DNA of 64,000 bases from a phage (GCA_031520405.1 GCA_031520405.1_4842.1); one strand, 5' to 3'. Shown: positions 10,049-27,400, counted from the first letter of the stretch. Program-made: numbers and translations. The notes: a model not told the origin generated them from the letters alone.

Positions 10049-10364
10049 TCCGGAGCCTCACCGAATTGATTAAATGTCTCCATTATTATATTGGAGATAC
10101 GTTTATTGAATATAAACACAGGAATGGCCAATAAAATAATGACAGTGATTATTAATAGGTAAAAACTACTTTTCTACAACATCAAGAAACTGTATCTTAA
10201 CGCGGTGCCCTTCGAGTTGTGAGTGTTAACGAACAACGAGAAGCAGCCACCATGGCTGCGGAATGGGACTGCCTGTCAAGGCGGTGTTACGAGCGAGGGC
10301 GTCAGCCCCCTCGCGAGTATATTCGAATAAATTAAACGCGCGCGAGCGTTTTGATTCCCGTTGG

Positions 10365-10372
10365 CTAAATAT
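10365..10372 (+). promoter_or_regulatory. T4-late-promoter-like box CTAAATAT upstream of the baseplate wedge gene
   Basis: matches the recurring CTAAATA(C/T) motif found upstream of many structural genes here; resembles T4 late consensus TATAAATA. Confidence 0.35.
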
Positions 10373-10411
10373 CTTCAACACCATATTCAAACTCAGGTGA
10401 TGGAGATTATC

Positions 10412-12193
10412 ATGGCCACGCAAACAGTTCCTTCACTCGACGTCAGAGCATTTGAATACATTATTAAACAGCGAATGAAAGCTGATCCCACCTTTAAAGA
10501 TTATGACTTTGAAGGTTCTGGTCTTAGTGCGATTATTCGTTTGTTGGCATCTGACGCGAACGCCATAGCCTTTATGCAAAACATGCTTAATGGTGAAGGC
10601 CATTTGAAGACAGCAAATCAACGTTCAAACGTCGGTTTATCTGCTGCATTTCTTTCCTACACGCCTGACAACTATCGGGCAGCATACATGTATGTCAACA
10701 TCAAAGTTACGCCTTATGACGCCAGCACAGCCCCCAATGAGATCATCATGGATCGGCGCGTAATGTTCGTTGGGGCAAAAGACGGCAGTTCCTACAACTT
10801 TACTGTTGAGAAACCAGTGTCAGCAACGTTGACTGCAGACGGTTATTACATGTTCAACAATGTAAAGTTGGTACAGGGGAATTGGTTGTACAAGACATAT
10901 GATGTTGAAGGAAGCGCGATTTCAACATATACGATTCCTTCTGGGAATGTCGATATCAATCATATGGTCGTGCAAGTACAAGAATCAGAGTCTTCCGACG
11001 TTTCGACGACATATCAACGTTACAACAGTCCATTTGATCTGAGCCAATATGCTTACCTGTATTTCGTAGAATTGGGTATTGACGGTCTGTATGTGTTTGA
11101 ATTCGGGGATGGTTATCTTTCGCGTCGAGTAGAAGATGGGAACGTCATATTCCTTCAATACTTGGAAACTTCTGGTGCTGATGGGAATGATATCACAAGC
11201 CTGTCATCAGCGTCATCCATAGGCGGGTTTAACCAGGTCGACGTAGAATTGGTTTCCGAACGTAGCGCAGGTGGAGACGATCCAGAATCTATTGAGGACA
11301 CTAAACGGTTGGCTCCTTTAGCTTATCAGGCTGATGGTGCTGCGGTTACAGAAACAGATTATGGTGTATTGACTGAAAGGTTATTCTCCAACGTCTCCCG
11401 AGCTAAATCATATGGTGGTGACACGCTGTCTCCTCCTGATTCTGGCTATGTTTACATCGCTGTTATACCTTCTGTTGGTGAGACACTTTCGGACGCTGAG
11501 AAGGCCGATATCGTTGCTGCTCTGGACAAGTATAATGTGGGATCTATTACCCCCAAAATAGTAGACTCCGAGATCACATATATCCAAGTCTCAACGACTA
11601 TATTTTGGGATCCTACTTCTACAGTCTACGTTGAAGAACAGATGAAAGTTGTTGTTGGAAACAGTATCGTTAAATGGGGTGAAAATAATCTCGGCGGATT
11701 TGACCAATTGTTTGACAAAGAAATATTGCAGGAAGCAATTACAAAAATGGAACGTTCTATCAACTCGAATATTACTTCAGTTGGTTATAAACGCCATTTC
11801 AAACCTGATTATGGAGTCTTAGACAGTTTCACATTCAGTTATGGACGAAGTATCAAACCTGGTTCTGTGAAAATAACGGGGTTCAAACCGCTTCCTGCCG
11901 AGGTGGATTTCACTTACTACATGCGCGACAATAATGGCGATCTGAACATGTATAAAGTGAATAACAATGACACGACAAAAGAGTTTTTAGTTCAAAAAAC
12001 AGGGGTTGTGGATTATGCAAATGGGGTTGTAGACCTTCAGCAGATCACGGTCTCTAACTATAACCCTGAAGGGGTGACCATAGTCGTGTTACCGGATGGA
12101 CTGAACCAGAACATACAGGCTACACAAAACCAAGTATTCAAGATTGGTGATGTGGTTGTTACGCCAGAGGTGCGCTATGTCCAAAGATCTTAA
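10412..12193 (+). CDS. gp6: baseplate wedge protein, T4 gp6-like
   Basis: about 593 aa from ATG at 10412 (GGAG RBS); size, position ahead of the tail-fibre genes and remembered similarity to T4 gp6; the track's 10361 start lies inside the promoter box. Confidence 0.6.
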   Translation: MATQTVPSLDVRAFEYIIKQRMKADPTFKDYDFEGSGLSAIIRLLASDANAIAFMQNMLNGEGHLKTANQRSNVGLSAAFLSYTPDNYRAAYMYVNIKVTPYDASTAPNEIIMDRRVMFVGAKDGSSYNFTVEKPVSATLTADGYYMFNNVKLVQGNWLYKTYDVEGSAISTYTIPSGNVDINHMVVQVQESESSDVSTTYQRYNSPFDLSQYAYLYFVELGIDGLYVFEFGDGYLSRRVEDGNVIFLQYLETSGADGNDITSLSSASSIGGFNQVDVELVSERSAGGDDPESIEDTKRLAPLAYQADGAAVTETDYGVLTERLFSNVSRAKSYGGDTLSPPDSGYVYIAVIPSVGETLSDAEKADIVAALDKYNVGSITPKIVDSEITYIQVSTTIFWDPTSTVYVEEQMKVVVGNSIVKWGENNLGGFDQLFDKEILQEAITKMERSINSNITSVGYKRHFKPDYGVLDSFTFSYGRSIKPGSVKITGFKPLPAEVDFTYYMRDNNGDLNMYKVNNNDTTKEFLVQKTGVVDYANGVVDLQQITVSNYNPEGVTIVVLPDGLNQNIQATQNQVFKIGDVVVTPEVRYVQRS

Positions 12194-13031
12194 TAATGGA
12201 CACAACGGGGTTAAGTATGAAACTCCGTTGTTCTACCAGAATGATTTCCCTCTGTTCATAGAATTTATGGACACGTTCTTCAATTGGTTGTATAGACAGC
12301 AGGGGTTCACTCAAGAAGAGATCTTGGCATATCTGGCAGATACGTCTAGTTGGATGAATCCCGAGAGTGAAGATTCTCCGGTTAAACAGCTGATTGATTT
12401 AAAGGCTGACAAGACTCCAGGCTCAGAGGCCAAGGATTATTTGTCTGATAAATTCTTGGTTCGTACCTTTGAGAACATGATGGCTCTGGATGCCGAAGAA
12501 CTTTTAGATGCCGACGGAAGGCCGCTATTGTCAATAGAAGATAAGAACAAACAGATAGATGACTGGTATAATGATTTTGGTTTCCAACGAACTGTTGATA
12601 AATCATTTCAAGAATTTGGACATTTTATCCCAGTCGGTTCGGATTCTTTATTGACGGCCACGGGCGATACGTTCTCTGTTTATATCGAAGGAACGAAACG
12701 GAGAACGCTAGATCATCCACGTTGGTTGAAACTGTTAAAACATATCTATAAAATCCGCGGAACCAAGAAAGCAATTGAATTGTTCTTTTGGATATATTTT
12801 GGTTGTCCAGTCAGTGTCTATTTCCCAAAAGAGGAAATAGGCGGTCTGGATGGCAATTTTGAATGTGACGGTATGACAGGGATGCGTGATGACTATTATT
12901 ATGATGAGTACACTTACGTGATAAGAGTCCCAGGCGACGTATCTGATTTCGAAGGCGTATTTGAACGTGTCTTCCGTCAGCATTTCCATCCTGCTGGGTT
13001 TACTGTATTCCTAGAAAGTTCAAGGAGCTAA
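12177..13031 (+). CDS. baseplate-associated structural protein (function uncertain)
   Basis: ORF in the baseplate/fibre block; likely start ATG 12177 overlapping the upstream stop by 17 nt. Confidence 0.5.
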   Translation: MSKDLNNGHNGVKYETPLFYQNDFPLFIEFMDTFFNWLYRQQGFTQEEILAYLADTSSWMNPESEDSPVKQLIDLKADKTPGSEAKDYLSDKFLVRTFENMMALDAEELLDADGRPLLSIEDKNKQIDDWYNDFGFQRTVDKSFQEFGHFIPVGSDSLLTATGDTFSVYIEGTKRRTLDHPRWLKLLKHIYKIRGTKKAIELFFWIYFGCPVSVYFPKEEIGGLDGNFECDGMTGMRDDYYYDEYTYVIRVPGDVSDFEGVFERVFRQHFHPAGFTVFLESSRS

Positions 13032-13033
13032 AA

Positions 13034-14224
13034 ATGGCCGATTTCCTGAGTCAATATACAGGTCAGCAGATAGATCAGATATTGGGTTCTGTTGACGACA
13101 AAGTAAGTAAAAATGACGTTATTAACGATTTTGAAGTTAACGACCCATTGTTTCCACCATCTGCTCGCCTGACATATGAGTTGAAAAGATCTGTTGACAC
13201 AATCAATGATACTCTGGCCAACAAAGTTATTCGTACAGATAGTGGTGAACAAACAATCAATGGCAAAAAGACTTTCAATGCGTTGTTGGTGACCAATGGG
13301 GGCATACAAGTTCCCGCCGGAAAATCCGTTTCAATCACAGATGAACCAACGAACTCGACAGATGGTGTTAACCTGAGCATGTTGAGAAAGCATGGCGTCA
13401 GTGAAGACACTACCCCGCCTGGTTCTGGTTTGGCTGGGGAGTTGTTGACATCCGGATATTACAAATTCAATTTGGACTTCACCAGGTTGTCTGCGTATAC
13501 CGGACCAACGTTGCCGACTTCAGTTCCAGTACAAACAGATTCTGGAGCGCGTTATTGGACAATGACTGCATTTTTTGATGCGTTGTTTGCAGACAACCGA
13601 TTTAATGGATATGTGACAACGACAGCGTATGACGCAGATATGCTGAGTCTAGAATCCCAGATTAATAACATCAACACGTCGTTGAACGGGAAAGTCAACA
13701 CCTCGACTTACAACACTAAGATGGCGTCATTGGATTTGAGTATCTCCAATATCAATACGTCTCTGGGTAATAAAGTCGAGGTCAGCACGTACAACACGAA
13801 GATGGCATCTCTGGATAACAGCATCAGTTCTCTTTCCAGTGATAAAGTTAGTGTATCAACGTATAATGCCAAGATGACCTCTATCGACAATAGTTTGGGG
13901 AACGCCGTTTATCGTACCAAAACGAATTTGTCGTCATACACGGTTTCGGCTTCTGGAACGACGGCTCTTCCAGATTTTGATTTGGTGAACCTTTGTCAAA
14001 TACTGGTAACTGCGCAATGGGGGATAGGTAACGTTGTTGACACATATCGAGTAACCATAACTCGTGACGGAACGATCAAATCAGAGTTGTTAGTTCAGAA
14101 AAGTACGAGTGGTACAGTGACGTTCACAGGGTCTGTGGTGGGCGGTAAATTGAGAATTTCCGTTGTTAATGCGAATACAACAACTGCTTGTTCTGTTGAT
14201 TATTCTATTGCAGCTTCTTTCTAA
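13034..14224 (+). CDS. fibre-like structural protein with tandem 22-aa repeats
   Basis: 396-aa ORF; AAGGAG RBS; three tandem NTSxxNKVxxSTYNTKMASLD repeats. Confidence 0.6.
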   Translation: MADFLSQYTGQQIDQILGSVDDKVSKNDVINDFEVNDPLFPPSARLTYELKRSVDTINDTLANKVIRTDSGEQTINGKKTFNALLVTNGGIQVPAGKSVSITDEPTNSTDGVNLSMLRKHGVSEDTTPPGSGLAGELLTSGYYKFNLDFTRLSAYTGPTLPTSVPVQTDSGARYWTMTAFFDALFADNRFNGYVTTTAYDADMLSLESQINNINTSLNGKVNTSTYNTKMASLDLSISNINTSLGNKVEVSTYNTKMASLDNSISSLSSDKVSVSTYNAKMTSIDNSLGNAVYRTKTNLSSYTVSASGTTALPDFDLVNLCQILVTAQWGIGNVVDTYRVTITRDGTIKSELLVQKSTSGTVTFTGSVVGGKLRISVVNANTTTACSVDYSIAASF

Positions 14225-14226
14225 AA

Positions 14227-14264
14227 CTAAATACCCCTAGATGACATGAATACATTTAGGGGTA
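14227..14264 (+). promoter_or_regulatory. CTAAATAC late-promoter-like box fused to a 5' hairpin (TACCCCTA/TAGGGGTA) ending 6 nt before the ATG
   Basis: read directly; same architecture recurs at 17375, 19433, 30909, 41158 and 47170. Confidence 0.4.
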
Positions 14265-14270
14265 TTACAA

Positions 14271-17200
14271 ATGGCCAACAAACCAACACAGCCTCTTTTC
14301 CCTTTGGGTTTAGAAACTTCTGAGTCTTCGAACATAAAAGGCTTCAACAACTCCGGCACTATTGAGCATTCCCCTGGTGCCGTAATGACATTTCCTGAAG
14401 ATACTGAAGTTACAGGTCTTCCATCTTCTGTGCGTTACAATCCTGATAGTGATGAATTTGAAGGTTATTACGAAAACGGTGGTTGGCTGTCTTTGGGGGG
14501 CGGTGGAATACGCTGGGAAACGCTCCCTCACGCTCCCTCTAGCAATTTGTTAGAAGGTCGTGGCTATCTCATTAATAATACCACAGGGACATCTACAGTG
14601 GTTCTCCCTTCCCCTACGCGTATTGGGGATTCCGTTACTATTTGTGATGCTTATGGGAAATTTGCCACTTACCCATTGACCGTGTCTCCTTCTGGAAATA
14701 ATTTGTATGGTTCCACTGAAGACATGGCTATAACAACTGATAATGTTTCAGCAACGTTCACTTGGTCTGGACCTGAACAAGGTTGGGTTATCACATCCGG
14801 AGTCGGTCTTGGTCAAGGCCGTGTCTACAGTCGTGAAATCTTTACACAAATTTTGGCGTCTGAAACAAGTGCTGTCACTCTCAATACTCCACCAATAATC
14901 GTGGACGTGTATGCTGACGGAAAACGTCTTGCGGAATCCAAATATTCACTAGATGGGAATGTAATCACTTTCAGTCCTTCTTTGTCAGCCAACACAGAAC
15001 TTCAGGTGATTGAATATACTCCTATTCAATTGGGTAATGGCGGTGGTTCTGGTTCTTCTACGATTACTTGGGTCTATAATGGGGGTTCAGCGATTGGCGG
15101 TGAAACCGAAATCACGTTAGACATCGTTGTTGATGATGTTCCGGCCATTGATATAAACGGAAGTCGCCAGTATAAAAATCTGGGGTTCACATTCGATCCA
15201 TTAACCAGTAAAATCACTCTTGCGCAAGAACTGGATGCAGAGGATGAAGTTGTTGTAATTATCAATGGAACGCCAAACATCTATAATCAAATTGATTATA
15301 CTTTGCGGGAAGTGGCTCGTGTAACCAATGTTAAAGATACAGAGGTCATTTATTTTAGTGTTGGTGCTGTGTTAAGCGGGTATAAAGTTATCTATGATAA
15401 AGTAACACAGAGATCATATTTTATTCCAGAGCTACCGACTGGAACCACGGCAGTCAGCCTTAGTTCTTCGGCTGTACTTGTGCATTCTGCTGGTAGTGTT
15501 GATCTGGGCGCATTAGCTGTATCTCGTGAAGAATACGTAACATTGTCTGGGACATTTGATTCTGGTGCTGTCATCAATACTAAAAATGAATTACTCACTC
15601 ACACGGATGGAAAGTATCGTTGGGATGGTACACTTCCTAAAACCGTTGCTCCTGGCTCAACTCCTATTACAACAGGCGGCGTTGGTGTTGGCGCATGGAT
15701 TAGTGTTGGTGATGCTTCATTGAGAAGTGACTTATTAAAAGATGATGGATACACACTTATTCCATCAGTGCAAATTCAGCAATGGAGAGCTGAGGGTGAC
15801 ATTAGAGGGTGGGGGGCTGTAGACGGTGGATTCAATGATTCAGCCATTTTAGCGGCTCTAAACTCTGATTCACCGAGTATAAAGCTCGGCGGAAGAGGAT
15901 TTGTTTCCAAGGTTTCCGATACCATTAACCACAAAAGCAATAAAGTGATACATAGTGGTTCCCTGAATTTTCAGTTTGTTGGAGGAACTCAGCAAGAGAA
16001 ATCCGGGATACTTATGGCTAACATCGCTAATGCCAAAGTGATTGATGTTGATATAACCGGAACCCTGGACGGCGGCATTCGTGGGTACGGTGGAAGCAAT
16101 ATCGTTATTGACGGAGTGAGTGTTCACGACATCGGGGTTTCAGCATTGACTGGCGAGTGCGGCATGGGGATCTGGTTCGGAGACTACGCACACTATGAGA
16201 ATCAAACTGATGGACTATTAATACAAAATTGCCGCATTAACAATATTGGCGGTGTAGGCATCATGCGCGGTGACGGCATTGGTGTTTATAATGCTAAAAA
16301 CTTTACTATCAGAAACAATAACATCACCACTGTAAACAGAATGGGGATATCAGCAGGTAGTGATTGTTTATATTTCAAAATACACGGGAACTATATTGGC
16401 GATATCTTATTGGCAGGTATAGATATAGAACCAGATGCACATTATACCGCTTCAAATTTCAAGATATACAATAACACTATTATTGGTTTTGCCTCTAGAT
16501 TCGTGACTGCGACTGGCGGTGTTGGTCAGCTTTTTGGTATTGATGTACACGCCAACACTTCATACGGTAAAGTTTACAAGAACATACTGTCGGCAGGTCA
16601 GTATGGAACAGAAGCATTCCATATAGGAAATAATGCAGATGAGATTGAGATTACAGATAACGATCTGATAGGCGGTGCTGTTGTAATCCCATTATTCATT
16701 AAGACATATGATGGTAGTGGTAGTAAGCACATCAAAATAAACCGCAACAGGGCAAAGAGAACATGTAAATCATTTGCAGATGTTGCCATGTCTGAAGATG
16801 TTTATATTTCTGAAAATGTATTCTCTGGAAATAGTTCTGCTGATAGCTTTTTCTTAAGGCTATCGACAATATCTGGGCTTAATGTTGACTATAACCGGTC
16901 CAGTGATACAACAAACTTCATTAAGGCATTTGACGCTGGAAACACATCAAGTATGAAGGTCACTAATAATAATGCATACACTCTTTCAGATGGTATAGAC
17001 ATACTAACTTCTGGTCCACTGGCTGAATTTATTGCTTCTGGAAACACTATTTTATGCCCAGCATCCAACAAAGGAATTTCACTGGAAGTAACAGGTTCAG
17101 GTTCTATTTCTAATATTAGGCTCCGTGGCAACATAATTTATAATGCCACAACTAAAATATATGTATCACCTGCTGCCACTGGATGGGATATGTTAACCAA

Positions 17201-17306
17201 AAATAGCAGGTATGATCTGTCTGGAGTCGCAAATGGCACTCAGCTATTCGAACTATCAAGGAATAGAGTTACTCAATTTTTAAACGGAACATGGTATGAT
17301 GGTTAA
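14271..17306 (+). CDS. tailspike protein 1 (1011 aa) with N-terminal anchor modules and beta-helix-like repeats
   Basis: shares a conserved block (VxYFSVG..SGYKVIYD..YRWDG..GAWxSVGDxSLRxDL) with the two tailspikes at 17415 and 22293; NxxITTVNRMGISAG-type parallel beta-helix repeats. Confidence 0.75.
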   Translation: MANKPTQPLFPLGLETSESSNIKGFNNSGTIEHSPGAVMTFPEDTEVTGLPSSVRYNPDSDEFEGYYENGGWLSLGGGGIRWETLPHAPSSNLLEGRGYLINNTTGTSTVVLPSPTRIGDSVTICDAYGKFATYPLTVSPSGNNLYGSTEDMAITTDNVSATFTWSGPEQGWVITSGVGLGQGRVYSREIFTQILASETSAVTLNTPPIIVDVYADGKRLAESKYSLDGNVITFSPSLSANTELQVIEYTPIQLGNGGGSGSSTITWVYNGGSAIGGETEITLDIVVDDVPAIDINGSRQYKNLGFTFDPLTSKITLAQELDAEDEVVVIINGTPNIYNQIDYTLREVARVTNVKDTEVIYFSVGAVLSGYKVIYDKVTQRSYFIPELPTGTTAVSLSSSAVLVHSAGSVDLGALAVSREEYVTLSGTFDSGAVINTKNELLTHTDGKYRWDGTLPKTVAPGSTPITTGGVGVGAWISVGDASLRSDLLKDDGYTLIPSVQIQQWRAEGDIRGWGAVDGGFNDSAILAALNSDSPSIKLGGRGFVSKVSDTINHKSNKVIHSGSLNFQFVGGTQQEKSGILMANIANAKVIDVDITGTLDGGIRGYGGSNIVIDGVSVHDIGVSALTGECGMGIWFGDYAHYENQTDGLLIQNCRINNIGGVGIMRGDGIGVYNAKNFTIRNNNITTVNRMGISAGSDCLYFKIHGNYIGDILLAGIDIEPDAHYTASNFKIYNNTIIGFASRFVTATGGVGQLFGIDVHANTSYGKVYKNILSAGQYGTEAFHIGNNADEIEITDNDLIGGAVVIPLFIKTYDGSGSKHIKINRNRAKRTCKSFADVAMSEDVYISENVFSGNSSADSFFLRLSTISGLNVDYNRSSDTTNFIKAFDAGNTSSMKVTNNNAYTLSDGIDILTSGPLAEFIASGNTILCPASNKGISLEVTGSGSISNIRLRGNIIYNATTKIYVSPAATGWDMLTKNSRYDLSGVANGTQLFELSRNRVTQFLNGTWYDG

Positions 17307-17317
17307 GTTATTTAAAA

Positions 17318-17341
17318 ACCCCGCTTCGGCGGGGTTCTTAT
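17318..17341 (+). terminator. intrinsic terminator (UUCG tetraloop)
   Basis: ACCCCGC-TTCG-GCGGGGT followed by TCTTATTAT. Confidence 0.65.
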
Positions 17342-17382
17342 TATACCTTTGTTCATAAATTTTATTAGTTCAGACTAAATAC
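17325..17382. repeat. direct repeat copy 1 (about 58 bp, identical to 19383-19440)
   Basis: identical string spanning terminator 3' half through the CTAAATAC box. Confidence 0.9.
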
Positions 17383-17409
17383 TCCATATTGGTCATCCTT
17401 TATGGAGTA
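17375..17409 (+). promoter_or_regulatory. CTAAATAC box plus 5' hairpin TACTCCATA/TATGGAGTA upstream of tailspike 2
   Basis: 9-bp stem, 12-nt loop; 3' arm contains the GGAG RBS; ATG at 17415. Confidence 0.4.
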
Positions 17410-17414
17410 TTATC

Positions 17415-19328
17415 ATGATTTCTCAATTCAATCAACCACGCGGCTCCACTTCCATAGAAGTTAACAAACAATCTATCGCTCGAAATTTCGGTGTCAAAGA
17501 AGACGAAGTCATTTATTTCACTGTCGGTATTGATCTCAGCGGATTTAAAGTAATTTATGATGAGTCTACCCAACGGGCTTATTCTCTTCCTTCGGGTATT
17601 GTTTCAGGAACGATTGCGATAAGTCTGAACGAACAAGCCATCCTTACTCATTCTTCTGGCTCTGTTGACCTTGGGGAATTAGCAGTAAGCCGCGAAGAAT
17701 ATGTGACTTTACCTGGTTCTTTTAATTTCGGTCATACCATTAATGTGAAAAATGAACTTCTTGTTCACGATGATAAAAAATATCGATGGGATGGTTCTTT
17801 GCCAAAGGTAGTTGCCGCTGGTTCTACACCCGATAACTCAGGCGGTGTTGGTTTAGGTGCATGGTTGAGTGTTGGTGATGTATCATTGAGAGCGGATTTG
17901 GCTAGTGGCACACTTGGTAAAGGTGCGAATCTTTTGACATATAAGTCACAAGTATCAAACTCGGTTGCTATAAGCCAACAAATTAAAAATAGTGAAAGGG
18001 TTTCTGTTTTTGAGTATTTGGCTAAGCCTATTCCTGGTTTTGATAATGCATCAGCATTCGCTGCTATGAAAGCTGATGCTGAAGCAGGTGTTGTAATAAC
18101 AGTACCTTCAGGAGTATATGAAACATCTGAACCACTGAGATTCACAAAACCTGTTCAAATATGGTTTGATGTAGGAGTGCGAATAAAACTTACATCTGGT
18201 GCACATGACCATGTTGTGGAAATAGATTTACGTGGACAAGATGAGGGGTATTGGGGGTATAAACCTTTCTTTGGTGGTGGCAGGGTTATTCTTGATGGTC
18301 TTGGTCATGCTAAGTACGGGCTATCACTTCGTGGCGTAATATCTGGTGGTTTTCCTGGTATTCAAGCAACCAATATAACAACTGCTGGGTTATATCTGGC
18401 TTGGACTCAATGCTGTACATACACTGATTTTATTTGCTCTAATAACGTGGAGGTTTTCACAACAAAACCCCTGCACGGTATTTTAGTAGATAAAGATAAC
18501 AATCCGTCAAATCCACGTGGTACATCATGCGATATCTTTATTAACCCATGTGTAGAGCACACTGCGGGTGATGGGTTTGTAGGACTAAGCCTGATGAACT
18601 CAATGGTTATAAACGGAACAATCGAGGGAAACCTTGGCGCAGGCATTTCATTGGGGCATCCTACAGATAATACTTACACTGCACTGGGTAATACATTTCT
18701 TGGTATTGACCTTGAGGTGAACACGCTAACTGATATTGTGATTAACAAGTTTTCACACATGAACGAGTTCATAGGACTCAAATCAGGTTATTCATCTCCA
18801 TCAGTTCAGGTCAGAGGTTTTCGTAACTATTTCTCTGGAGGTACTGTTAGCGATTTCGACTTCAGGCCAGATAGCCATGACAACCACGTACAGGATGTAA
18901 CACTTTTAGCTGAGTTTCCTGTTGTTAATGATGAAGGGATAAGAAACACTTATGAAAGATTATGGAATCTTAACAATGCTCAAGTTAACGTAAGCACAAA
19001 CCCTGTTAACACAAGAAGCAATCAGCCTATAGCGGGAGGTGAGACAGTAACGTTAGACCCATATAAAGCATCCTATGTTGTATGCACCGCAACAGGAACA
19101 CCTATTAATATAGTTTCTGCCACCAAAAAATTAGATGGAGCAAGAATAGATTTGACAATTCACAATGCATCAGGAACAGATTCATTAGTCATTAACTGGG
19201 CATCAGATATTAGAGTTGGCAATTTTACTCCTCCACCAGCAGGTAAACATAAGGGGTTATCACTAAGATATGATGCTAATTACGGTTATTGGACTGTAGT
19301 TGGTGTTGGACTGGACGCTTTATCGTGA
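17415..19328 (+). CDS. tailspike protein 2 (637 aa)
   Basis: N-terminal anchor block shared with the tailspikes at 14271 and 22293; Gly/Asn-rich beta-helix-like C-terminal region. Confidence 0.75.
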   Translation: MISQFNQPRGSTSIEVNKQSIARNFGVKEDEVIYFTVGIDLSGFKVIYDESTQRAYSLPSGIVSGTIAISLNEQAILTHSSGSVDLGELAVSREEYVTLPGSFNFGHTINVKNELLVHDDKKYRWDGSLPKVVAAGSTPDNSGGVGLGAWLSVGDVSLRADLASGTLGKGANLLTYKSQVSNSVAISQQIKNSERVSVFEYLAKPIPGFDNASAFAAMKADAEAGVVITVPSGVYETSEPLRFTKPVQIWFDVGVRIKLTSGAHDHVVEIDLRGQDEGYWGYKPFFGGGRVILDGLGHAKYGLSLRGVISGGFPGIQATNITTAGLYLAWTQCCTYTDFICSNNVEVFTTKPLHGILVDKDNNPSNPRGTSCDIFINPCVEHTAGDGFVGLSLMNSMVINGTIEGNLGAGISLGHPTDNTYTALGNTFLGIDLEVNTLTDIVINKFSHMNEFIGLKSGYSSPSVQVRGFRNYFSGGTVSDFDFRPDSHDNHVQDVTLLAEFPVVNDEGIRNTYERLWNLNNAQVNVSTNPVNTRSNQPIAGGETVTLDPYKASYVVCTATGTPINIVSATKKLDGARIDLTIHNASGTDSLVINWASDIRVGNFTPPPAGKHKGLSLRYDANYGYWTVVGVGLDALS

Positions 19329-19373
19329 CATCACCAACATTATAAAATGATGTTGTTGCTGTTAAAATTTAAA

Positions 19374-19400
19374 TAACCCCTCTTCGGCGGGGTTCTTATT
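19374..19400 (+). terminator. intrinsic terminator (UUCG tetraloop, one stem mismatch)
   Basis: ACCCCTC-TTCG-GCGGGGT followed by TCTTATT. Confidence 0.55.
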
Positions 19401-19440
19401 ATACCTTTGTTCATAAATTTTATTAGTTCAGACTAAATAC
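19383..19440. repeat. direct repeat copy 2 (identical to 17325-17382)
   Basis: identical string. Confidence 0.9.
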
Positions 19441-19468
19441 CCCATATTGGCAAATCCTTTATGGGGTA
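19433..19468 (+). promoter_or_regulatory. CTAAATAC box plus 5' hairpin TACCCCATA/TATGGGGTA upstream of tailspike 3
   Basis: differs from the 17380 copy by a compensatory T-to-C / A-to-G pair that preserves the stem. Confidence 0.45.
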
Positions 19469-19475
19469 TTTTCAA

Positions 19476-22241
19476 ATGACCAGAAATGTAGAAGAATTAT
19501 TCGGCGGCGTAATCACAGCTCCTCACCAGATTCCTTTCACGTATAAATCAAATGTCGGTGGAGAAACTTTCCTTTCTTTGCCGTTCCATCCCGTCACTGG
19601 TGTTATCACAATCAACGGTGGTATGCAAGTTCCGTTAGACAACTTTGAAATCGAAGGAAATACGTTGAATCTCGGGCGCGCATTGTCCAAAGGCGATGTT
19701 GTGTATTGCTTATTCGATAAAATTCTTTCGCCAGAAGATACAGCCAAAGGTATCCGCATATACAAATTTCAGGCCGTGGGAGGTGAAACCGAGTTCACTC
19801 CTGATTTCACATCCTATGGTGTCCAATCTCTTTATATCGGTGGCGAGTACAAAACACCCGAAATTGAATATTCCTATAACAGCACGACAGGGAAAGTGTC
19901 TTTGCAAACTGCACTGACTGCAGGCGTTTGGGTAGTCGCTGAAATGTCTGTTAAACAACCGAATATCAGTCCGGCGTTTGACCGAAGTATTCAAGAAATC
20001 GCCCGTTCTGCTAATGTAAAAGACTCTGAAGTCATCGTTAGTACGGACACCATATCTTTGTTGGATGGGAAGAAAGTTGTTTATGATATAGCGACGCAAA
20101 CCAGTTATGGTTTACCAACCATTCCTGATGGTTCTGTCATTTCTTCTGTATCTGCTGGGAAATTGAATTACAACCCAGGTGATGTGCAGGTTGATTTGTT
20201 GCCTTTAGAAGATTCATTTATTAATGTGATAAACACTCTGGGGCGCAATGATGGTGCCAAGTATATTGGAGAATGCCATTCTGTTGCTGATCTCAGGAAT
20301 ACTGAACCCACTATGGATGGACAACGCATTATTCTTAAGCAACACACTGCGGGTACTCTTCTTGGTGGAGGGGTATTCCGTGCGTTAATTGATGGTACAG
20401 GAAAGACTGATAATAACGGTACTGTGATCAAAACTGTTGGCGGCGCGGCATGGTTACGTGTTAATGCTGATAGAGTTAACCCATTCATGTTTGGTGCTTT
20501 GGGTGGTTCTAATGATGATACTATTCCAGTACAATCTTGTGTGGATAGTGGTAAGGCCACACAATTAACTGATGCACATTACGTTAGCAATATCCAGTTA
20601 AAATATAATACGTCGTCTATTTATGGGTCTGGATTACATTACTCAAGGTTGCATCAGTTGCCTTCTGCTACTGGGAATTGTATTACCATAAAAGATACAT
20701 GCTCCCTTATTGTATTAGACGCCTTTGGGGTATATGGCACAGGTGCACAACAAGGCATGCCATTTACTGCGGGCACAACAGGTATCTATGTAGAAACTCC
20801 TTCAGGTCTCTCAGCCGATTATCCGTTCCACACTACCGCAGACCCAAGACGCGACTTGTGTATTTCTAAGGTCCATATAGCAGGTTTTGATGAATATGGG
20901 TTAAATATTGATAGTGGTAACTTTAGTGTTACTACAGATTCTCTTTTAGTCAACCACATCAATCAGGTGGGTGTCCGTTGTGCTACTACTGATTGGACTT
21001 GGACAAATATCCAGGTTAATACCTGCGGTAAACAATGTCTGGTTCTTGATGGTTGTGGTAATGGTCGTATTATTGGCGGTAAATTCATTTGGGCTAACTG
21101 GCAACCTTATGGTACAGTAGGACAGTTCCCAGGCATTACTATTAATAACAGCCAGAATATGGTTATTAATGGTATTGAGGTACAAGATTGTGGCGGGAAT
21201 GGCATTGAGATTAGCGATTCATATTCAATTTCCATGAACGGATTGAACACCAATCGTAACGGCATCAATGCTAACAACACTTTCTACAACATCGTATTTA
21301 ACAAAAGCGATGCAGTTATCAACGGATTCGTAGGACTCAATTATGCCGCGAATAGTGGTTCAGGTGCTAACTCTAGTGCAGGCAATTTTCAGTTCCTGTC
21401 TAATGATTGTAGTGTCACCATTAATGGTGTGGTTGAGACTGGTTATATGGGCATTAACTTTATTGGTGATAACAATATTATCAACCCCACCAATTCCGAC
21501 CTGAGCATTAACGGATTGGTTAATTATTCCAAGACTGGTTTGCAAACCATGAACGAGACCCCTACATTTGATGGTGTTAGCACTACACCTGTTTATGTAA
21601 GTGTCCCATCTTCTGTAGGGCAAGTAAATGGTCTGAGACTATCACAAGCCAACAAAGATAAATTACTGTATTCAAGAACAGCAGGTCCAGAAGGTATTAC
21701 CATGGCTGCTGTTGTAGTACCCACCATATCTGGAGCTGAAGTATTTAACTTCATGGCCATTGGTTCAGGGTTTAGTGATACATCCAACAGTCTTCATCTT
21801 CAATTAGTTATAGACGCTTCTGGAAAACAAACAATTGCTTTGCTATTGGGGGGCGATGGTACAACCCAAATTTTATCTGGGGATTTACCTAACGACCTTA
21901 AACTACAAAGTGGTGTACCATATCATATAGCTATTGGTGCTAAACCTGGATATTTCTGGTGGAGTATTCTTAATATTCAGACGGGTAAGAGAATCAGACG
22001 GTCATTCCGAGGCGCTTATTTAGCCGTACCATTTAATTCTATATTCGGATTAACTTCTTCATTAACATTCTTCTCGGATAGCAATGCTGGTGGGGATGCT
22101 TGTTCTGGGGTTGGTGCTAAAGTGTATGTTGGTATGTTCTCTTCTGAGAACGATTATGTAGCTTCACGATACTACAACCTGATTAATCCTGTAGACCCTA
22201 CTAAGTTAATTAGTTACCGTATATTGGATTCTTCTATTTAA
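19476..22241 (+). CDS. tailspike protein 3 (about 921 aa)
   Basis: start placed at ATG 19476, 7 nt after the hairpin as in the paralogs; carries a more divergent anchor block (NVKDSEVIV...KVVYDIATQTSYGLP) and a beta-helix-like region. Confidence 0.7.
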   Translation: MTRNVEELFGGVITAPHQIPFTYKSNVGGETFLSLPFHPVTGVITINGGMQVPLDNFEIEGNTLNLGRALSKGDVVYCLFDKILSPEDTAKGIRIYKFQAVGGETEFTPDFTSYGVQSLYIGGEYKTPEIEYSYNSTTGKVSLQTALTAGVWVVAEMSVKQPNISPAFDRSIQEIARSANVKDSEVIVSTDTISLLDGKKVVYDIATQTSYGLPTIPDGSVISSVSAGKLNYNPGDVQVDLLPLEDSFINVINTLGRNDGAKYIGECHSVADLRNTEPTMDGQRIILKQHTAGTLLGGGVFRALIDGTGKTDNNGTVIKTVGGAAWLRVNADRVNPFMFGALGGSNDDTIPVQSCVDSGKATQLTDAHYVSNIQLKYNTSSIYGSGLHYSRLHQLPSATGNCITIKDTCSLIVLDAFGVYGTGAQQGMPFTAGTTGIYVETPSGLSADYPFHTTADPRRDLCISKVHIAGFDEYGLNIDSGNFSVTTDSLLVNHINQVGVRCATTDWTWTNIQVNTCGKQCLVLDGCGNGRIIGGKFIWANWQPYGTVGQFPGITINNSQNMVINGIEVQDCGGNGIEISDSYSISMNGLNTNRNGINANNTFYNIVFNKSDAVINGFVGLNYAANSGSGANSSAGNFQFLSNDCSVTINGVVETGYMGINFIGDNNIINPTNSDLSINGLVNYSKTGLQTMNETPTFDGVSTTPVYVSVPSSVGQVNGLRLSQANKDKLLYSRTAGPEGITMAAVVVPTISGAEVFNFMAIGSGFSDTSNSLHLQLVIDASGKQTIALLLGGDGTTQILSGDLPNDLKLQSGVPYHIAIGAKPGYFWWSILNIQTGKRIRRSFRGAYLAVPFNSIFGLTSSLTFFSDSNAGGDACSGVGAKVYVGMFSSENDYVASRYYNLINPVDPTKLISYRILDSSI

Positions 22242-22245
22242 AAAT

Positions 22246-22272
22246 ATACCCCTCTTCGGAGGGGTCTTTACT
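22246..22272 (+). terminator. intrinsic terminator (UUCG tetraloop)
   Basis: ACCCCTC-TTCG-GAGGGGT followed by CTTTACT. Confidence 0.6.
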
Positions 22273-22292
22273 AGAAAAACAATGAGGTACTT

Positions 22293-24338
22293 ATGAACGA
22301 AATGTTTAGTCAAGGTGGTAAAGGTTCGACTGGAATCTTAACCAATAAACAAGCAGTAGCCAGACACTTTGGTGTTAAACAATCTGAGGTTGTTTATGCC
22401 AAATCAGGACAGTCCTTGTCTGGTTATAAAGTGATCTACGATAAGGTATCTCAACGTGCCTACGCTCTCCCTTCTAACATTGGTACTGTAACGGTCACTA
22501 GTTTAGTCGACGGCATTCTCACGCACTCTGGAGGCACCGTAGATTTGGGTGCATTGGCTGTGTTAAGGGAAGAGTATGTTACTCTTGTTGAAAATTTTAC
22601 TTCTGGATTTACGATTCGTGTCAAGAACGAAGTCGTGAGCGATGGGGTGAGTCTATATCGTTGGGATGGTGCTTTACCTAAAACCGTTGCACCTGGCTCA
22701 ACACCTGAAACAACTGGTGGCGTTGGTTTAGGTGCATGGTTGAGTGTTGGTGATGCCACATTAAGAAGTGAATTAACATTGAATGTTTCAGATATTAATG
22801 GATTGATTAACGTTAATACAAGAAACAAAAATTTCATGTATGTTACATCATCGTTTCGAGGGGGTGGAGGTGCTGGTGTATATGTATGGAATCCCACAAA
22901 AAATAAATCATTACATAACGGAGCGACTATCATAGACCCATCAAGGACTCTACCGATAAACTGGGATTCTCAGTCGCAAATAGATGATTGGTTTACAATT
23001 TCATCCACAGATGGGGTGGGATGTTTTGAATTAATTGAGGGGGAGAGCTCGGTTAATCCATTGCAGTGGGGCTGCTTGGGCGATTCATCAAAAGACAACC
23101 CACATAGTGGGTATGATAACTCTTTAATATCTGATTATGTTGATGACTACGCTGAATCAGTAAATAAAACAGTATTTTGGCCTCACGGTATATTTAGATT
23201 CACTGGTCCACAGCAAAGAAAGACAAGGCATGATGGACATGAATACATTAGAATGAATAGTGAGTTTTCTACTGTTTTTATTATTGACAATCAGACGCCA
23301 ATAACTTTTCTAAAAGGAAAAGGGATTGGGACCGACCATCAGAAACTGTATGCCCACGGTTCAAGAGGAATAGAATATATTGGCAACCCTAAACGAATCC
23401 ATACTCTTCTTGATGCATACATGTACACGACATCATGGAAGCATTTTGCTGTTCGTGGATTTAAATATGGATTTGATATAAATTTTGTCTCTTTCCATAT
23501 TCAGAATTTCTATTTTACTGATAATGAAATTGGAATTTACCCAAAACCACTAATGCCGCCATTGCAAGCTGCCGCACCAAGTACAATGCTATCATTATCT
23601 TACGGTGCATTTGATTTCAGTAAGAATGGAATAGTATTCACTGAGAGATTTGGGCTTGGCGAGGCAGAAAACGTCATAAACGTAAATCTATCTTCTGTTG
23701 TGTTCGAACAAAATGAATTTGACGGATTCAGTTGTGCTAACTATCCATTACCTGTCGGTGTGAAAAACGCCAACAACAGGGTTATGAACCTTACAGTAAA
23801 TAATTGCTGGGCTGAACTTAACGGTAGAGCTGGTTTCAACTTCGAGAACGCTGACGTAACTGCGAATTCATTGAGAATAAATGAAGCGGATGAATTGATT
23901 TATCCAGCAGGGGCAAGGACATACTCTATTGATGTAAATGGTGTAAGGGAAACAAACGTACTAAAATCGTCACTTTATGGAGCGCATAATATAGAAGCTC
24001 CGGTATCTGGTCAAATGATAATAAAACCAGATGGTAGCATTTATTCTGGTGCGACAATGCCTTTTACTGTTACAAAGACATCGGAAGGTCAATTTAAATT
24101 AACGAATGCATCATCTACTCAGGGGTTTCAATACGTATCAATAGAGGTTATGCCATTCGATAGAGCAAGGATTGATACTGTTGTGACATGTGACCCATCA
24201 GATGTCGCAGCGTTCGTTCAGTTTGGTACAATATCAAGCTATAAGATTGAATTTACATCGAGAGGCACATCTACATTTGTAACTCCAGAGGCTGGTTTCG
24301 CAGTTAAATTCTCATGGGTTCACCCTCTTAATAATTAA
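22293..24338 (+). CDS. tailspike protein 4 (681 aa)
   Basis: N-terminal anchor block nearly identical to tailspike 1 (LYRWDGALPKTVAPGSTPETTGGVGLGAWLSVGD). Confidence 0.75.
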   Translation: MNEMFSQGGKGSTGILTNKQAVARHFGVKQSEVVYAKSGQSLSGYKVIYDKVSQRAYALPSNIGTVTVTSLVDGILTHSGGTVDLGALAVLREEYVTLVENFTSGFTIRVKNEVVSDGVSLYRWDGALPKTVAPGSTPETTGGVGLGAWLSVGDATLRSELTLNVSDINGLINVNTRNKNFMYVTSSFRGGGGAGVYVWNPTKNKSLHNGATIIDPSRTLPINWDSQSQIDDWFTISSTDGVGCFELIEGESSVNPLQWGCLGDSSKDNPHSGYDNSLISDYVDDYAESVNKTVFWPHGIFRFTGPQQRKTRHDGHEYIRMNSEFSTVFIIDNQTPITFLKGKGIGTDHQKLYAHGSRGIEYIGNPKRIHTLLDAYMYTTSWKHFAVRGFKYGFDINFVSFHIQNFYFTDNEIGIYPKPLMPPLQAAAPSTMLSLSYGAFDFSKNGIVFTERFGLGEAENVINVNLSSVVFEQNEFDGFSCANYPLPVGVKNANNRVMNLTVNNCWAELNGRAGFNFENADVTANSLRINEADELIYPAGARTYSIDVNGVRETNVLKSSLYGAHNIEAPVSGQMIIKPDGSIYSGATMPFTVTKTSEGQFKLTNASSTQGFQYVSIEVMPFDRARIDTVVTCDPSDVAAFVQFGTISSYKIEFTSRGTSTFVTPEAGFAVKFSWVHPLNN

Positions 24339-24343
24339 TATAA

Positions 24344-24370
24344 AAACCCCGCTAATGCGGGGTTTTATTT
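24344..24370 (+). terminator. intrinsic terminator
   Basis: CCCCGC-TAAT-GCGGGG followed by TTTTATTT. Confidence 0.65.
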
Positions 24371-24432: not shown

Positions 24433-27400
24433 ATGCAATCTACAAATTTAAACCGTCGCCCGTATTGGGATGACTGGAATCCTGGGAAACGTTTTTCACG
24501 GATTCTTTTTCGTCCGATGCCTATCAAGGTTCAGACTCGCGAACTGAACCAGATGCAGACTATTCTTCAGGATCAAATTGAAAAACTGGGCAACCATTTG
24601 TTCAAAGATGGTTCTATGGTTATCCCTGGCGGTCTGACGATCACTAACGCCGCAGTCTCTTTGAAATTCACTTTGGCGGGTGGTACTGAATTCACTGATC
24701 TGGAAGGTATTTCTGAACTCTACGTTTTGGGGAAAGACAATAACGCCAAAGCGCGTGTGCTGTCTCTTGAACGTGATCTGTCTGCTCCTGATACAATGCT
24801 GGCTATCCTTGAGATGACTGAAGCGGGTAATGCTGACGGATTCCATGTTAACGATAATCTGTATTTCCAGACTTACGACGTGAATGATAATTTCATTCGT
24901 ATTGGTTATGGTATCGCAGCTGCAGTGACTGGTTCTATCGTCGCTCGTATGACGAAAGGCGTTTACTTCATTCGTGGGATGTTCCTAGACGTTGATGACG
25001 CAACTCTTATCGTTGACAAAACTTCTAACATCACTTCCCACCGCATCGGATTTAAAGTCACCGAAACCATTGTCACTGAAACAGAAGATGAATCCCTTTA
25101 TTCAAATGCTCAGGGAACGATTAACTCCAAAGCCCCAGGCGCTCATCGTCTTCGAATAGATCTGGTCTTATCTCGATTTGATTATGATGCTGTGGTTGAA
25201 GACTTTGTTGAACTGGCCAAAGTTCGTGATGGTAAAATCCAGTCTATGGTGACTCAGTCCACCTATAATATTCTGGAAGACACGTTGGCCCAACGGACGT
25301 ATGAAACCAACGGCGATTACAACGTTTCGACCCATCAGATCGATATCCGTGAACACCTGAAAGTCAATAACAATGGCGGGGTATTCGGTGCTGCTGATGG
25401 CGGTGACGAAAGTAAATTCGTGTCTGTAATGAAACCAGGTATTTCCTATGTTCGTGGTCGCCGTATCGAAAACGTCGGGGAAGAGTTGGTGATCGTTGAT
25501 AAGGCGCGGGATACCGATGTCCTGAATAACACCCCTGTTGCGGTGGCCACAGGCAATTATCTGGTCACCAAGAATTCTAAAGGTGTGCCAGTGATATCCC
25601 GCACCGTTCGATACAAATTACTGAATGCTTCAGGCGTTACCCAGGCTACAGCACTTTGTATATCAGCTGAACGTAATTCAACAGAATTTCGTCTGTATAT
25701 GCGCGACCTGGTCGTTACTGGCGATGCATCCACTATCACCAAAGTGTCTTACGAAGAAAGCGGTATCACCATGTTCTCTGCTGAACTGGAATCCAATCAG
25801 TTTAACCAGAGTTCTATGATAGATCTGATCTTCTCTCTTCCGGTATTCGGTGTCAAGACTTTAGCACCAACTGGCTCCGTGGATATCAACTACACTGTTC
25901 TCAGAACGTATAAAGTGACGCTAGACAGCAGTGGTTCTGGTTCTATTTCAGCCCCGCTGGGATATAGTTTTTCCCCAGAATTTTCGTTATACTCTGCAGC
26001 GAAATCTGATGGTTCTGAAGCGCAGTTCGATATCTCTGGTTCTTTGTCTTTGACTGGTTCTCCGGTCGGTTCGGCGCTGCAGATTTCTCTGGGCAGTGGT
26101 AATGCTAACCAGTCAATCAATTTGCTGGCGCTGATGATTCGTACCACGGCCACAATCAAAACGAAGACCATCACTGAAACAACTGAAACAGTGACGTTCA
26201 CCTCGCAGACTAGCCGCCCTTTGGCGAATCACGATGGTTGGAAATTGGTGTCGGTCAAAAACGATACTGGCGCAGACGTGACCTCCAGCTTCGTCCTAGA
26301 TGGCGGACAGCGTGATGCAGGGTATTACAAGTCTAACTTGTTATCCAGCGCTGGAGCAATCTCAGGGACGTATACAGTGGTGTATCAATACTTCGCCCAC
26401 AGTTCCGGTGATTTCTTCTCTGCTGATTCGTATACTTCGATGGATTATAAAGATATCCCGAATTATACATCTTCTACATCAGGCGCGGTGTACGGCCTGG
26501 CAGATAGTTTGGATTTCCGTCCGAAAATCACCAACGGAACTTCTGACACAGATATGGTTCGTCCAAACACTGCAGTTATTCTGGACACAGAATATTATCT
26601 GCCGCGTATTGACGCGATTTATCTGGCAGACAACGGTGTGTTTGGTGTGGCTCGAGGCATTAGTTCTAATAATCTGGCTTCTCCAGCAATCCCAGCGAAC
26701 GCCATGCGTTTGTATGAATTGTTGATCCCGCCGTATACACCGAATATTGATGATATCCAAATTCGAACTATTGATAATCGTCGTTATACGATGCGCGATA
26801 TCGGTAAACTGGAAACCCGTATTTCCAATGTTGAATACTATACCTCTCTGTCACAGCTGGAATCTTCAGCGATGACACAGCAAGTGTTTGACCCCATTAC
26901 GGGTAATCCTCGTTTCAAAAATGGTATTGCAGCTGATCCGTTCAAAGACTTCCGGTTGATTGATGACTTGTCTGAAGATTGGATGGGTTCTATCGATACC
27001 GAAAACGGACGTCTGCGCCCGTTTGTACAACAAAACGTTGTTGACATGACTCCGGTTGGCTGGAACAAAGTGATGGATGGGATGGTGGTTTGTAATTACA
27101 CGCCTGAAATCTCGGTGAACCAAGAATATGCGACGACGACGATCAACGTTAACCCGTATGCAGTATTCAATTGGGAAGGTTTCTTGAAGATTAACCCGAC
27201 CACAGACTACTGGTTCGAAAACTATTATGTTTCACCGCGTATTATCAATGAAACGATCAACACCCGTGGTACTGTACAAGAAGGTTCAGTGTATGGAACA
27301 TGGCGTACTGTTTCTGTTTCTGATCGTGTTTGGGAACCGCATGGTGCTGGTGGTGTGTGGTGGGGATATCGTTACCGCACGACTGTTTCTGCCCGTGATG

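Follow-up and report, generated by a model that had tools for sequence, protein, structure and literature searches.

Four tandem tailspike genes of a Kuttervirus phage and their predicted branched receptor-binding complex

Results and discussion

As a whole, the locus between positions 14271 and 24338 of a 64,000-nt stretch of phage DNA (the window) is best explained as the genes for a branched Kuttervirus receptor-binding complex, a reading that we consider very probable. Its ORFs are the tailspike genes TSP4-TSP3-TSP2-TSP1 of an Ackermannviridae phage (Kuttervirus, a CBA120/ViI-like myovirus). The four-tailspike cluster is real but already known; it is textbook for the Ackermannviridae and adds nothing conceptually. 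Branched complexes of four O-antigen-specific glycosidase spikes have been shown experimentally for this system (PMC8825819, PMC7506556, PMC8432352), and the multi-tailspike architecture proposed in an earlier note on this DNA is supported by the match of the locus to the complex of CBA120.

Gene content and relatives

The ORF map contained the four consecutive plus-strand ORFs described earlier, namely TSP4 (1011 aa, 14271..17306), TSP3 (637 aa, 17415..19328), TSP2 (926 or 921 aa, 19476..22241 for the shorter form) and TSP1 (681 aa, 22293..24338). Megablast of the region matched 257 phage records, nearly all of them Kuttervirus. Upstream lies a block of baseplate genes (10361..14224, plus strand) consisting of a gp6-like baseplate wedge subunit gene (10361-12193; phrog_219 baseplate wedge subunit, E 2e-192) and homologues of orf216 (ending at 13031) and orf215 (13034-14224), in the same order as CBA120 orf217-216-215. 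Directly downstream, on the same strand, is a gene for a 1612-aa protein (24433..29271) matching phrog_358 (function unknown), whose position equals that of CBA120 orf209 and of the JN03 gene vBEcoMJN03_0440. Judged against the annotation of CBA120, STP55 and JN03, the order TSP4-TSP3-TSP2-TSP1 thus lies 3' of the baseplate wedge genes and 5' of the orf209 homologue, and it is identical to that of CBA120 from orf217 through orf209. Pseudogenes or decayed paralogues were ruled out, all four ORFs being full length and collinear with functional homologues.

The nearest sequenced genome is that of Escherichia phage vB_EcoM_JN03 (OR885871), whose TSP3, TSP2 and TSP1 are 99.6–100% identical to those described here. 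It differs only in a cassette of about 1.7 kb encoding the C-terminal half of TSP4, with 98.4–98.6% DNA identity on both sides; its TSP4 has 1097 aa and another C-terminal module. All four TSP genes are annotated as 'hypothetical protein' in the JN03 record. Salmonella phage STP55 has a similar TSP4, but its TSP3 and TSP1 modules differ from those of the present phage. CBA120 TSP1-TSP4 (orf210-213) share gene order, flanks, the assembly domains of TSP4 (95–100% identity) and the D1-D2 heads of TSP1 and TSP3, but the CBA120 receptor modules of TSP4 (O78), TSP3 (O77) and TSP1 (Salmonella O:21) are unrelated in sequence to those found here: identity falls to about 21–27% past aa 490 of TSP4, and TSP3 and TSP1 have no match past aa ~162-179.

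The shared head block

A strongly conserved block had been noticed in three of the proteins, and its similarity is far beyond chance (E 1e-46 to 1e-56). TSP4 aa 346-488 and TSP1 aa 20-161 are 61% identical (E 1e-46), TSP3 aa 1-162 and TSP1 aa 1-161 are 59% identical (E 2e-53), and the blocks of TSP4 and TSP3 match with E 1e-56. The motif YRWDG is located at aa 449, 123 and 122 of TSP4, TSP3 and TSP1, respectively, and is followed by GAWxSVGDxxLRxxL at aa 474-488, 148-162 and 147-161. What had been called an "anchor block" corresponds to the D1-D2 head, which is already known and whose D2 part is Pfam PF18668; this family matches TSP4 aa 416-481 and aa 91-154 and 90-155 in TSP1 and TSP3. The heads extend over aa 344-490 of TSP4 (15300-15740), aa 1-162 of TSP3 (17415-17900) and aa 1-161 of TSP1 (22293-22775), all on the plus strand. 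In these three proteins the block is directly N-terminal to the divergent C-terminal module; it does stand at different positions, as had been stated, but only because TSP4 has 335 extra N-terminal residues.

The fourth protein, TSP2, had been credited with a more divergent version of the same block. This is half correct: the D1 half is present (aa 161-263 are 36% identical to TSP3 aa 7-123, E 1e-8; the D1 part matches TSP4 with E 4e-16), but a search of TSP2 for the YRWDG...GAWxSVGD motif and for PF18668 found neither. Published data on CBA120 TSP2 agree: its head consists of D1 alone, without the D2 motif.

Assembly of the complex

TSP4 appears to be the backbone of the complex. It begins with an anchor domain (AD; aa 1-75, 14271-14495) followed by the gp10-like domains XD1-XD2-XD3 (aa 80-335, 14508-15275), with limits taken from PMC8825819, and linkers are visible in the translation at G76-79 and T250-T264. 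Residues 1-338 match PDB 7rej (CBA120 TSP4-N; also 7rfo and 7rfv) with E values down to 8e-220, and PDB 5w6h matches aa 344-534. Compared with CBA120, AD, XD1 and XD3 are 100% identical and XD2 is 95% identical. TSP2 starts with an XD2-XD3 docking region (aa 1-168, 19476-19979), continued by a D1-only head (about aa 169-257, 19980-20246), after which the neck and D3' lead into the catalytic beta-helix. Further PDB matches to the XD and head regions are 9d80/9d83 and 4qnl. Jellyroll domains of the XD type serve as branching platforms for trimeric fibres or spikes in phage T4 gp10 and in G7C gp66/gp63.1 (PMC8825819); T4 gp10, however, carries gp11 and gp12 rather than enzymatic spikes, and G7C has two branches instead of four.

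The assembly rules for CBA120 were derived from ultracentrifugation and crystal structures of its proteins, and of its spikes only TSP4 binds the baseplate, via aa 1-75/XD1 (PMC8825819). On this model, trimeric TSP4 would attach to the baseplate via its N-terminal anchor domain, and its T4-gp10-like XD domains would carry the other three spikes: TSP2 would dock on TSP4 via its own XD2 domain, D1 of the TSP1 head on XD3 of TSP4, and the TSP3 head on the TSP2:TSP4 pair. Only TSP1 and TSP3 would then dock by the head (D1), and they would do so on TSP4/TSP2 and not on the baseplate. The four trimers probably join as one complex on the baseplate, as judged from the identity of the interacting domains with those tested in PMC8825819; for TSP1, the head of which shares only 70% identity with its CBA120 counterpart, we for this reason infer the docking and do not regard it as shown. 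Each spike is predicted to end in a trimeric right-handed beta-helix that would bind, and most likely cleave, one type of O-antigen, and one virion could therefore adsorb to several serogroups.

The earlier note took the shared YRWDG...GAWxSVGD block to be a general baseplate anchor, which would fix each spike to the baseplate independently. The block is indeed N-terminal to every divergent module in the three proteins, and it is with this end that TSP1 and TSP3 dock (PMC8825819). We nevertheless consider such an anchor highly improbable, since CBA120 TSP4 alone binds the baseplate and the TSP4 described here is 100% identical to it in aa 1-75/XD1, and since TSP4 constructs bind their partners equally with or without their own D1-D2 head (PMC8825819). 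TSP2, moreover, would dock through XD2 without possessing the D2 motif, and the same head domain turns up in 1176 records of phages whose tails differ widely. The claim is thus not borne out; only the N-terminal anchor domain of TSP4 is expected to reach the baseplate.

Receptor-binding modules

The C-terminal regions had been described as beta-helix-like, and this holds for all four spikes: for TSP2 by identity to a solved enzyme, for TSP4 by Pfam, and for TSP3 and TSP1 by structure prediction and fold search.

TSP2 is the spike whose target can be named with near certainty from its sequence, E. coli O157. The 921-aa protein matches PDB 6w4q over its full length, is 99.1% identical to the O157-specific TSP2 of CBA120 and 100% identical to that of JN03, and conserves the catalytic residues D506, E568, D571 and Y623 (defined in PMC7506556), while a Pfam scan of TSP2 gave no match to any family. 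An alternative start at 19461 would give 926 aa; the start at 19476 is likely, because aa 1-921 then align to 1-921 of the CBA120 TSP2 crystal-structure protein and because it lies about 10 nt 3' of a GGGG Shine-Dalgarno sequence.

The receptor-binding module of TSP4 (aa 491-1011, 15741-17306) contains a match to Pfam PF13229 (Beta_helix, aa 578-751); a sequence search of PDB with the module alone found nothing. Over its full length, TSP4 shares 94% identity with STP55 TSP4 (UPU15645), and the module itself is 89.8% identical to aa 501-1011 of the latter. With STP55 aa 491-1011 grafted on CBA120 TSP4, plaques formed on E. coli O111 (PMC12737597). Prophage tailspikes also contain the module: such spikes were detected in 23 of the 5426 complete E. 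coli genomes, with an O111 label on at least 15 of the 23, and in Salmonella, where they are labelled serovar Alachua or Adelaide. A lytic phage isolated on O111 has the module as well. The P22-like prophage tailspikes of E. coli O111 and of Salmonella O:35 serovars, and gp151 of the Justusliebigvirus ECGD1, have the TSP4 beta-helix module at 82–97% aa identity, but their N-terminal adaptors differ from that of TSP4, being the PF09008 P22 head-binding domain in the prophage spikes and a short PF18668 head in ECGD1. These data suggest that the shared E. coli O111/Salmonella O:35 antigen is the likely target of TSP4.

The beta-helix module of TSP3 (aa 163-637, 17901-19328) is attached to a head 94% identical to that of CBA120, and PDB 6nw9/5w6f (CBA120 TSP3) match only aa 1-177; the whole protein is 99.8% identical to that of JN03. 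An AlphaFold model of the module (pLDDT 89) retrieved the tailspikes of HK620, Sf6 and CBA120 (TSP3) in a Foldseek search. The next closest phage relatives of the module share 42–52% identity, which we considered too distant for the transfer of a specificity.

TSP1 carries a module (aa 162-681, 22776-24338) that is rare. PDB 4oj5 matches TSP1 aa 1-179, and the structure model is a beta-helix of only moderate confidence. A HMMER search with the module against 1.84 billion representatives gave about 7 full-length relatives (25–30% identity), together with hundreds of matches confined to an N-terminal subdomain of about 80 aa (aa ~185-270), and close relatives among 5.8 billion proteins formed only three clusters. 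Each of these has its own chassis, namely Kuttervirus TSP1, a PF18668-headed siphovirus spike and a PF09008 P22-type spike. Relatives of the module were sought in GTDB species representatives and IMG/VR and none were found, and neither the TSP1 nor the TSP3 module had a DNA match in the 5426 complete E. coli genomes searched for prophage hosts. We see an even chance that TSP1 aa 162-681 is a very rare module with a target new among studied tailspikes, which may open a host, be it a serogroup or a genus, beyond those of the known Ackermannviridae spikes.

Two other readings of the modules were weighed. The beta-helix fold occurs in non-enzymatic adhesins such as PfbA as well as in hydrolases, lyases and epimerases. 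One or both of the TSP1 and TSP3 modules might be a lyase, a deacetylase, a binding-only or a capsule-targeting protein instead of an O-antigen glycoside hydrolase. Searches with profiles of the TSP1 and TSP3 alignments did not reach beyond the generic N-terminal cap shared by beta-helix enzymes, so no enzyme class could be assigned; the Pfam scan of both proteins gave no catalytic family, and the alignments for TSP4, TSP3 and TSP1 yielded invariant Asp/Glu columns only. Several of these invariant residues in TSP1 and TSP3 are nevertheless in the helix region, the TSP3 module has homologues with PF12708 that bear GH28-related names, and each of the four CBA120 spikes has been characterised as a glycosidase (PMC7506556), which makes such a reading rather unlikely. 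Somewhat less likely still is an O-antigen target of the TSP4 module outside O111/O:35, for which its divergence of about 10% from the STP55 module that was tested would be the reason. Besides that divergence, one Salmonella member of its cluster is labelled serovar Anatum, and 8 of the 23 E. coli genomes have no serotype in their names. However, the prophage copies in E. coli labelled O111 are more divergent still (83–85% aa and about 80% DNA identity), the closest copy of the module (97%) shares its cluster with a protein that bears the serovar label Alachua, and no O label besides O111 occurs in the E. coli list. An O111/O:35 specificity of TSP4 is therefore preferred.

Cassette borders and module exchange

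A repeat search detected a 243-nt family of three copies (15483..15725, 17649-17891 and 22524-22766, plus strand; 67–70% identity), which encodes the D2 half of the head. Against JN03, STP55 and CBA120, DNA similarity is lost at 15714-15734, 17880-17899 and 22756-22767, although near-identity to JN03 ends already at about 15630; all breaks are in or right after the D2 block. The same search gave a 45-nt family of four copies, one after each TSP gene, which corresponds to a GC-rich, terminator-like hairpin with a UUCG loop behind the stop codon (17317..17336, 19375-19394, 22248-22265 and 24343-24366, plus strand). A terminator scan agreed, and the folding energies range from -9 to -18 kcal/mol. 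Similarity to the three phages resumes at 17314 (where near-identity to JN03 also resumes), 19372 and 24340-24342. The C-terminal modules thus appear to be exchangeable cassettes, with the conserved D2-coding block as the 5' border and the post-stop hairpin as the 3' border, and it is at these sites that the phage departs from its relatives. The same modules are also found on N-termini of the P22 type (PF09008), siphovirus type (PF18668) and T7 type (PF03906). The three pairwise comparisons suggest that the exchange may have occurred by homologous recombination at the flanks.

Leader and promoter-like elements

A late-promoter-like CTAAATACCCC motif and a leader hairpin lie upstream of TSP4 (14227..14270, plus strand), the hairpin pairing the CTAAATACCCC motif with the Shine-Dalgarno sequence. 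Equivalent elements start at 17375 (TSP3) and 19433 (TSP2), and a copy of the motif without the hairpin is at 24393 (orf209 homologue). The window contains 6 matches to the CTAAATACCCC motif where 0.21 would be expected. Folding energies of the leader hairpins are -18 to -20 kcal/mol, and C-G/U-A covariation is seen in them. A sigma-70 promoter scan was uninformative (19 sites versus 32 in shuffles), and an Rfam scan of the region gave two sub-threshold matches, both on terminator hairpins, that were taken as chance.

Significance

Since the module borders fall on two conserved flanks, the D2 block (5') and the post-stop hairpin (3'), they offer concrete splice points for engineering, and the TSP3 and TSP1 spikes could widen the toolbox of swappable receptor modules for engineered detection or biocontrol phages. 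In this phage, an O157 spike is naturally paired with a probable O111 spike, which brings together two major Shiga-toxin E. coli serogroups.

Tailspike gene cluster and shared head

The tailspikes are encoded by four consecutive long ORFs, all on the plus strand, as the earlier note had read them: TSP4 (ORF1, 14271–17306, 1011 aa), TSP3 (ORF2, 17415–19328, 637 aa), TSP2 (ORF3, 19461/19476–22241, 926/921 aa) and TSP1 (ORF4, 22293–24338, 681 aa). Since the 921-aa TSP2 product is collinear over residues 1–921 with the CBA120 TSP2 protein of PDB 6w4q and a GGGG Shine-Dalgarno sequence lies about 10 nt before 19476, this position, rather than 19461, is likely to be the true start.

Megablast retrieved 257 phage records, nearly all of Kuttervirus (Ackermannviridae), with Escherichia phage vB_EcoM_JN03 at the top. 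In gene order and flanking genes the cluster matches the Kuttervirus phage CBA120: gp6-like wedge, orf216, orf215, TSP4 (orf213), TSP3 (orf212), TSP2 (orf211), TSP1 (orf210) and orf209. CBA120 structures matched all four proteins: 7rej (TSP4-N) and 5w6h matched ORF1 at aa 1–338 (E = 8e-220) and aa 344–534, 6w4q matched ORF3 over its full length, and 6nw9 (TSP3) and 4oj5 (TSP1) matched only aa 1–177 of ORF2 and aa 1–179 of ORF4, respectively. Identity of ORF1 to CBA120 TSP4 is 100% in the anchor domain and in the gp10-like domains XD1 and XD3, 95% in XD2, 99% in D1 and 90% in D2, falling to 21–27% in the region after D2. All the defining sequence features of a CBA120-type complex that were open to testing are present; the multi-tailspike reading proposed earlier holds in outline, and the cluster is a real but already known system, only mildly new in the uncharacterised modules of TSP1 and TSP3. 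Directly downstream, a 1612-aa ORF (24433–29271) is the CBA120 orf209 homologue; its PHROG matches are all of unknown function (phrog_358 and phrog_877), each family matching in several stretches.

Pairwise BLASTP aligned TSP4 aa 346–488 with TSP1 aa 20–161 (61% identity, E = 1e-46), TSP3 aa 1–162 with TSP1 aa 1–161 (59% identity, E = 2e-53) and TSP4 with TSP3 (E = 1e-56), in agreement with the claim of a block common to these three proteins. Its YRWDG and GAWxSVGDxxLRxxL motifs are at aa 449/474 in TSP4, 123/148 in TSP3 and 122/147 in TSP1. TSP2, said to carry a divergent version, has the first half of the block alone (36% identity and E = 1e-8 to TSP3; E = 4e-16 to TSP4), and motif and Pfam searches of this protein found neither motif and no match to PF18668, the Pfam family of D2; the observation is therefore confirmed save for the fourth member. 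The block is the published D1-D2 (TD1-TD2) 'head'. All CBA120 tailspikes carry D1 and D2 except TSP2, which has D1 only (PMC8432352, PMC7506556), and the distribution here is exactly the same. The head is widespread, that of TSP1 matching 1176 phage records from many genera.

The block, called an anchor in the earlier note, is not a general baseplate anchor: in CBA120 it is TSP4 that contacts the baseplate, using the anchor domain and XD1, while TSP2 attaches to TSP4 via its own XD2, D1 of the TSP1 head binds XD3 of TSP4, and the TSP3 head docks on the TSP2:TSP4 complex (PMC8825819). Since the interacting domains of TSP4 and TSP2 are 95–100% identical, and the TSP3 head 94% identical, to those of CBA120, the four spikes probably assemble in the same way; the TSP1 contact is the least certain, as its head is just 70% identical.

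Putative late promoters and leader hairpins

The sequence CTAAATAYYYC occurs 6 times in the window (within 14227–14270, 17375–17414 and 19433–19475, and at 2510 on the minus strand, 24393 and 50347), against 0.21 expected. One copy each precedes TSP4, TSP3, TSP2 and the orf209 homologue, 30–45 nt before the start. In the T4-like phage Aeh1, the core of the late promoters was proposed to be CTAAATA (PMC1524935). At four of the six sites, those of TSP4, TSP3, TSP2 and minus-strand position 2510 (gene near 2470), the motif forms the 5' arm of an 11–14-bp stem and the Shine-Dalgarno sequence the 3' arm (-18 to -20 kcal/mol), with compensatory C-G/U-A changes between copies (ACCCC/GGGGU versus ACUCC/GGAGU). 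Motif and stem together look like a late promoter of the T4 type set inside a leader hairpin. By analogy with T4 gene e, read-through transcripts would conceal the ribosome site and promoter-initiated transcripts would expose it. Alone among the four tailspike genes, TSP1 was found to have no such element before it; since its 51-nt spacer from TSP2 (22242–22292) also contains just one hairpin, expression by read-through from TSP2 is suggested.

Receptor-binding modules

The TSP4 module (aa 491–1011; Pfam Beta_helix at aa 578–751) was found in the phage collection only in Salmonella phage STP55 (89.8% identity), Justusliebigvirus ECGD1 (84.5%) and a phage whose isolation host was E. coli O111 (86.5%). 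Grafting aa 491–1011 of STP55 TSP4 onto CBA120 TSP4 allowed plaque formation on E. coli O111 (PMC12737597). The module is common among P22-type prophage tailspikes with a PF09008 N-terminus (82–97% identity) and is present in 23 of 5426 complete E. coli genomes, at least 15 labelled O111 and none labelled with another O type. Labelled Salmonella carriers were of serovars Alachua and Adelaide, both O:35 serovars, and in one case Anatum. In structure, the O:35 antigen is identical to that of E. coli O111. Together with the graft result and the O111, Alachua and Adelaide carriers, this identity makes O111/O:35 the probable target of TSP4.

TSP2 is 99.1% identical to the O157-specific TSP2 of CBA120 (eight substitutions) and retains the catalytic residues D506, E568, D571 and Y623 (PMC7506556). 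Among phages, the TSP3 module is identical in JN03; it also matches two tailspikes of E. coli siphoviruses (52% identity) and a spike of PhiSH19-type Kutterviruses (42%). In a large protein collection it sits on short PF18668-headed spikes (84–92% identity) and, at 46–74%, on PF12708 proteins whose N-termini are of P22 or T7 type. Structure prediction, recommended in the earlier note, gave an AlphaFold model of this module with pLDDT 89, which Foldseek matched to the HK620, Sf6 and CBA120-TSP3 tailspikes at low TM-scores (0.3–0.48).

Of 50,697 phage records, JN03 alone carries the TSP1 module. A collection of 5.8 billion proteins contains it in three clusters: 1) one on a 158-kb phage-sized contig of an E. 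coli assembly, 2) a siphovirus spike (83% identical) and 3) a P22-type spike with PF09008 (82%). Exhaustive HMMER searching added just about 7 full-length relatives (25–30% identity). Host searches, covering 5426 complete E. coli genomes for the TSP3 and TSP1 modules and the GTDB species representatives and IMG/VR for that of TSP1, yielded no receptor for either spike. A siphovirus-type spike with this module and a PF18668 head, adjoining tape-measure and lysozyme genes, is encoded at 10001–11992 of a Logan contig (L003, ERR13731137), and a P22-type spike with PF09008 at 989–2959 of another (L002, SRR32829846); with Kuttervirus TSP1, the module is thus borne by three virion types. The ~80-aa subdomain opening the module (22845–23100, aa ~185–270; …GGGGAGVYVWNP…HNGATIIDP…) shares 35–45% identity with hundreds of otherwise unrelated proteins and resembles the TSP2 segment following D1; precomputed Pfam labels of the close relatives include PF27114 (Phage_tail_beta). 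The subdomain is apparently a small, widely shared domain that precedes beta-helices.

Cassette borders and mosaicism

JN03 is 98.4% identical to the window up to 15714 and 98.6% from 17314 on, with nothing alignable between. At 30-nt resolution near-identity stops at about 15630, right after the YRWDG codons, drops to 63–67% until about 15719 and is random beyond. Similarity to STP55 and CBA120 breaks at 17880–17899 and 22756–22767 and returns at 19372 and 24340–24342. We found that the left borders fall inside a D2-coding 243-nt repeat (15483–15725, 17649–17891 and 22524–22766), at the GAWxSVGD codons, and the right borders on a 45-nt repeat, one copy of which follows each tailspike stop codon and forms a GC-rich hairpin (17317–17336, 19375–19394, 22248–22265 and 24343–24366). 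These hairpins are terminator-like, mostly with a CUUCGG loop, and an 82-nt stretch of the TSP4-TSP3 spacer (17311–17392) is 95% identical to its counterpart between TSP3 and TSP2 (19369–19450).

Since the left borders lie at the GAWxSVGD codons within the D2 repeat, the conserved block is where exchangeable receptor cassettes are joined on their 5' side. The cassettes may be swapped by homologous recombination at the conserved flanks; this fits the engineering strategy used in PMC12737597 as well as the module swapping proposed in PMC8432352, whose site was put at the end of D1 (GTTAVSL). One SRA assembly holds an identical 7-kb stretch including the exact TSP4 of the window. GenBank already contains the modules of this mosaic phage, a JN03 backbone with an STP55-type TSP4 cassette.
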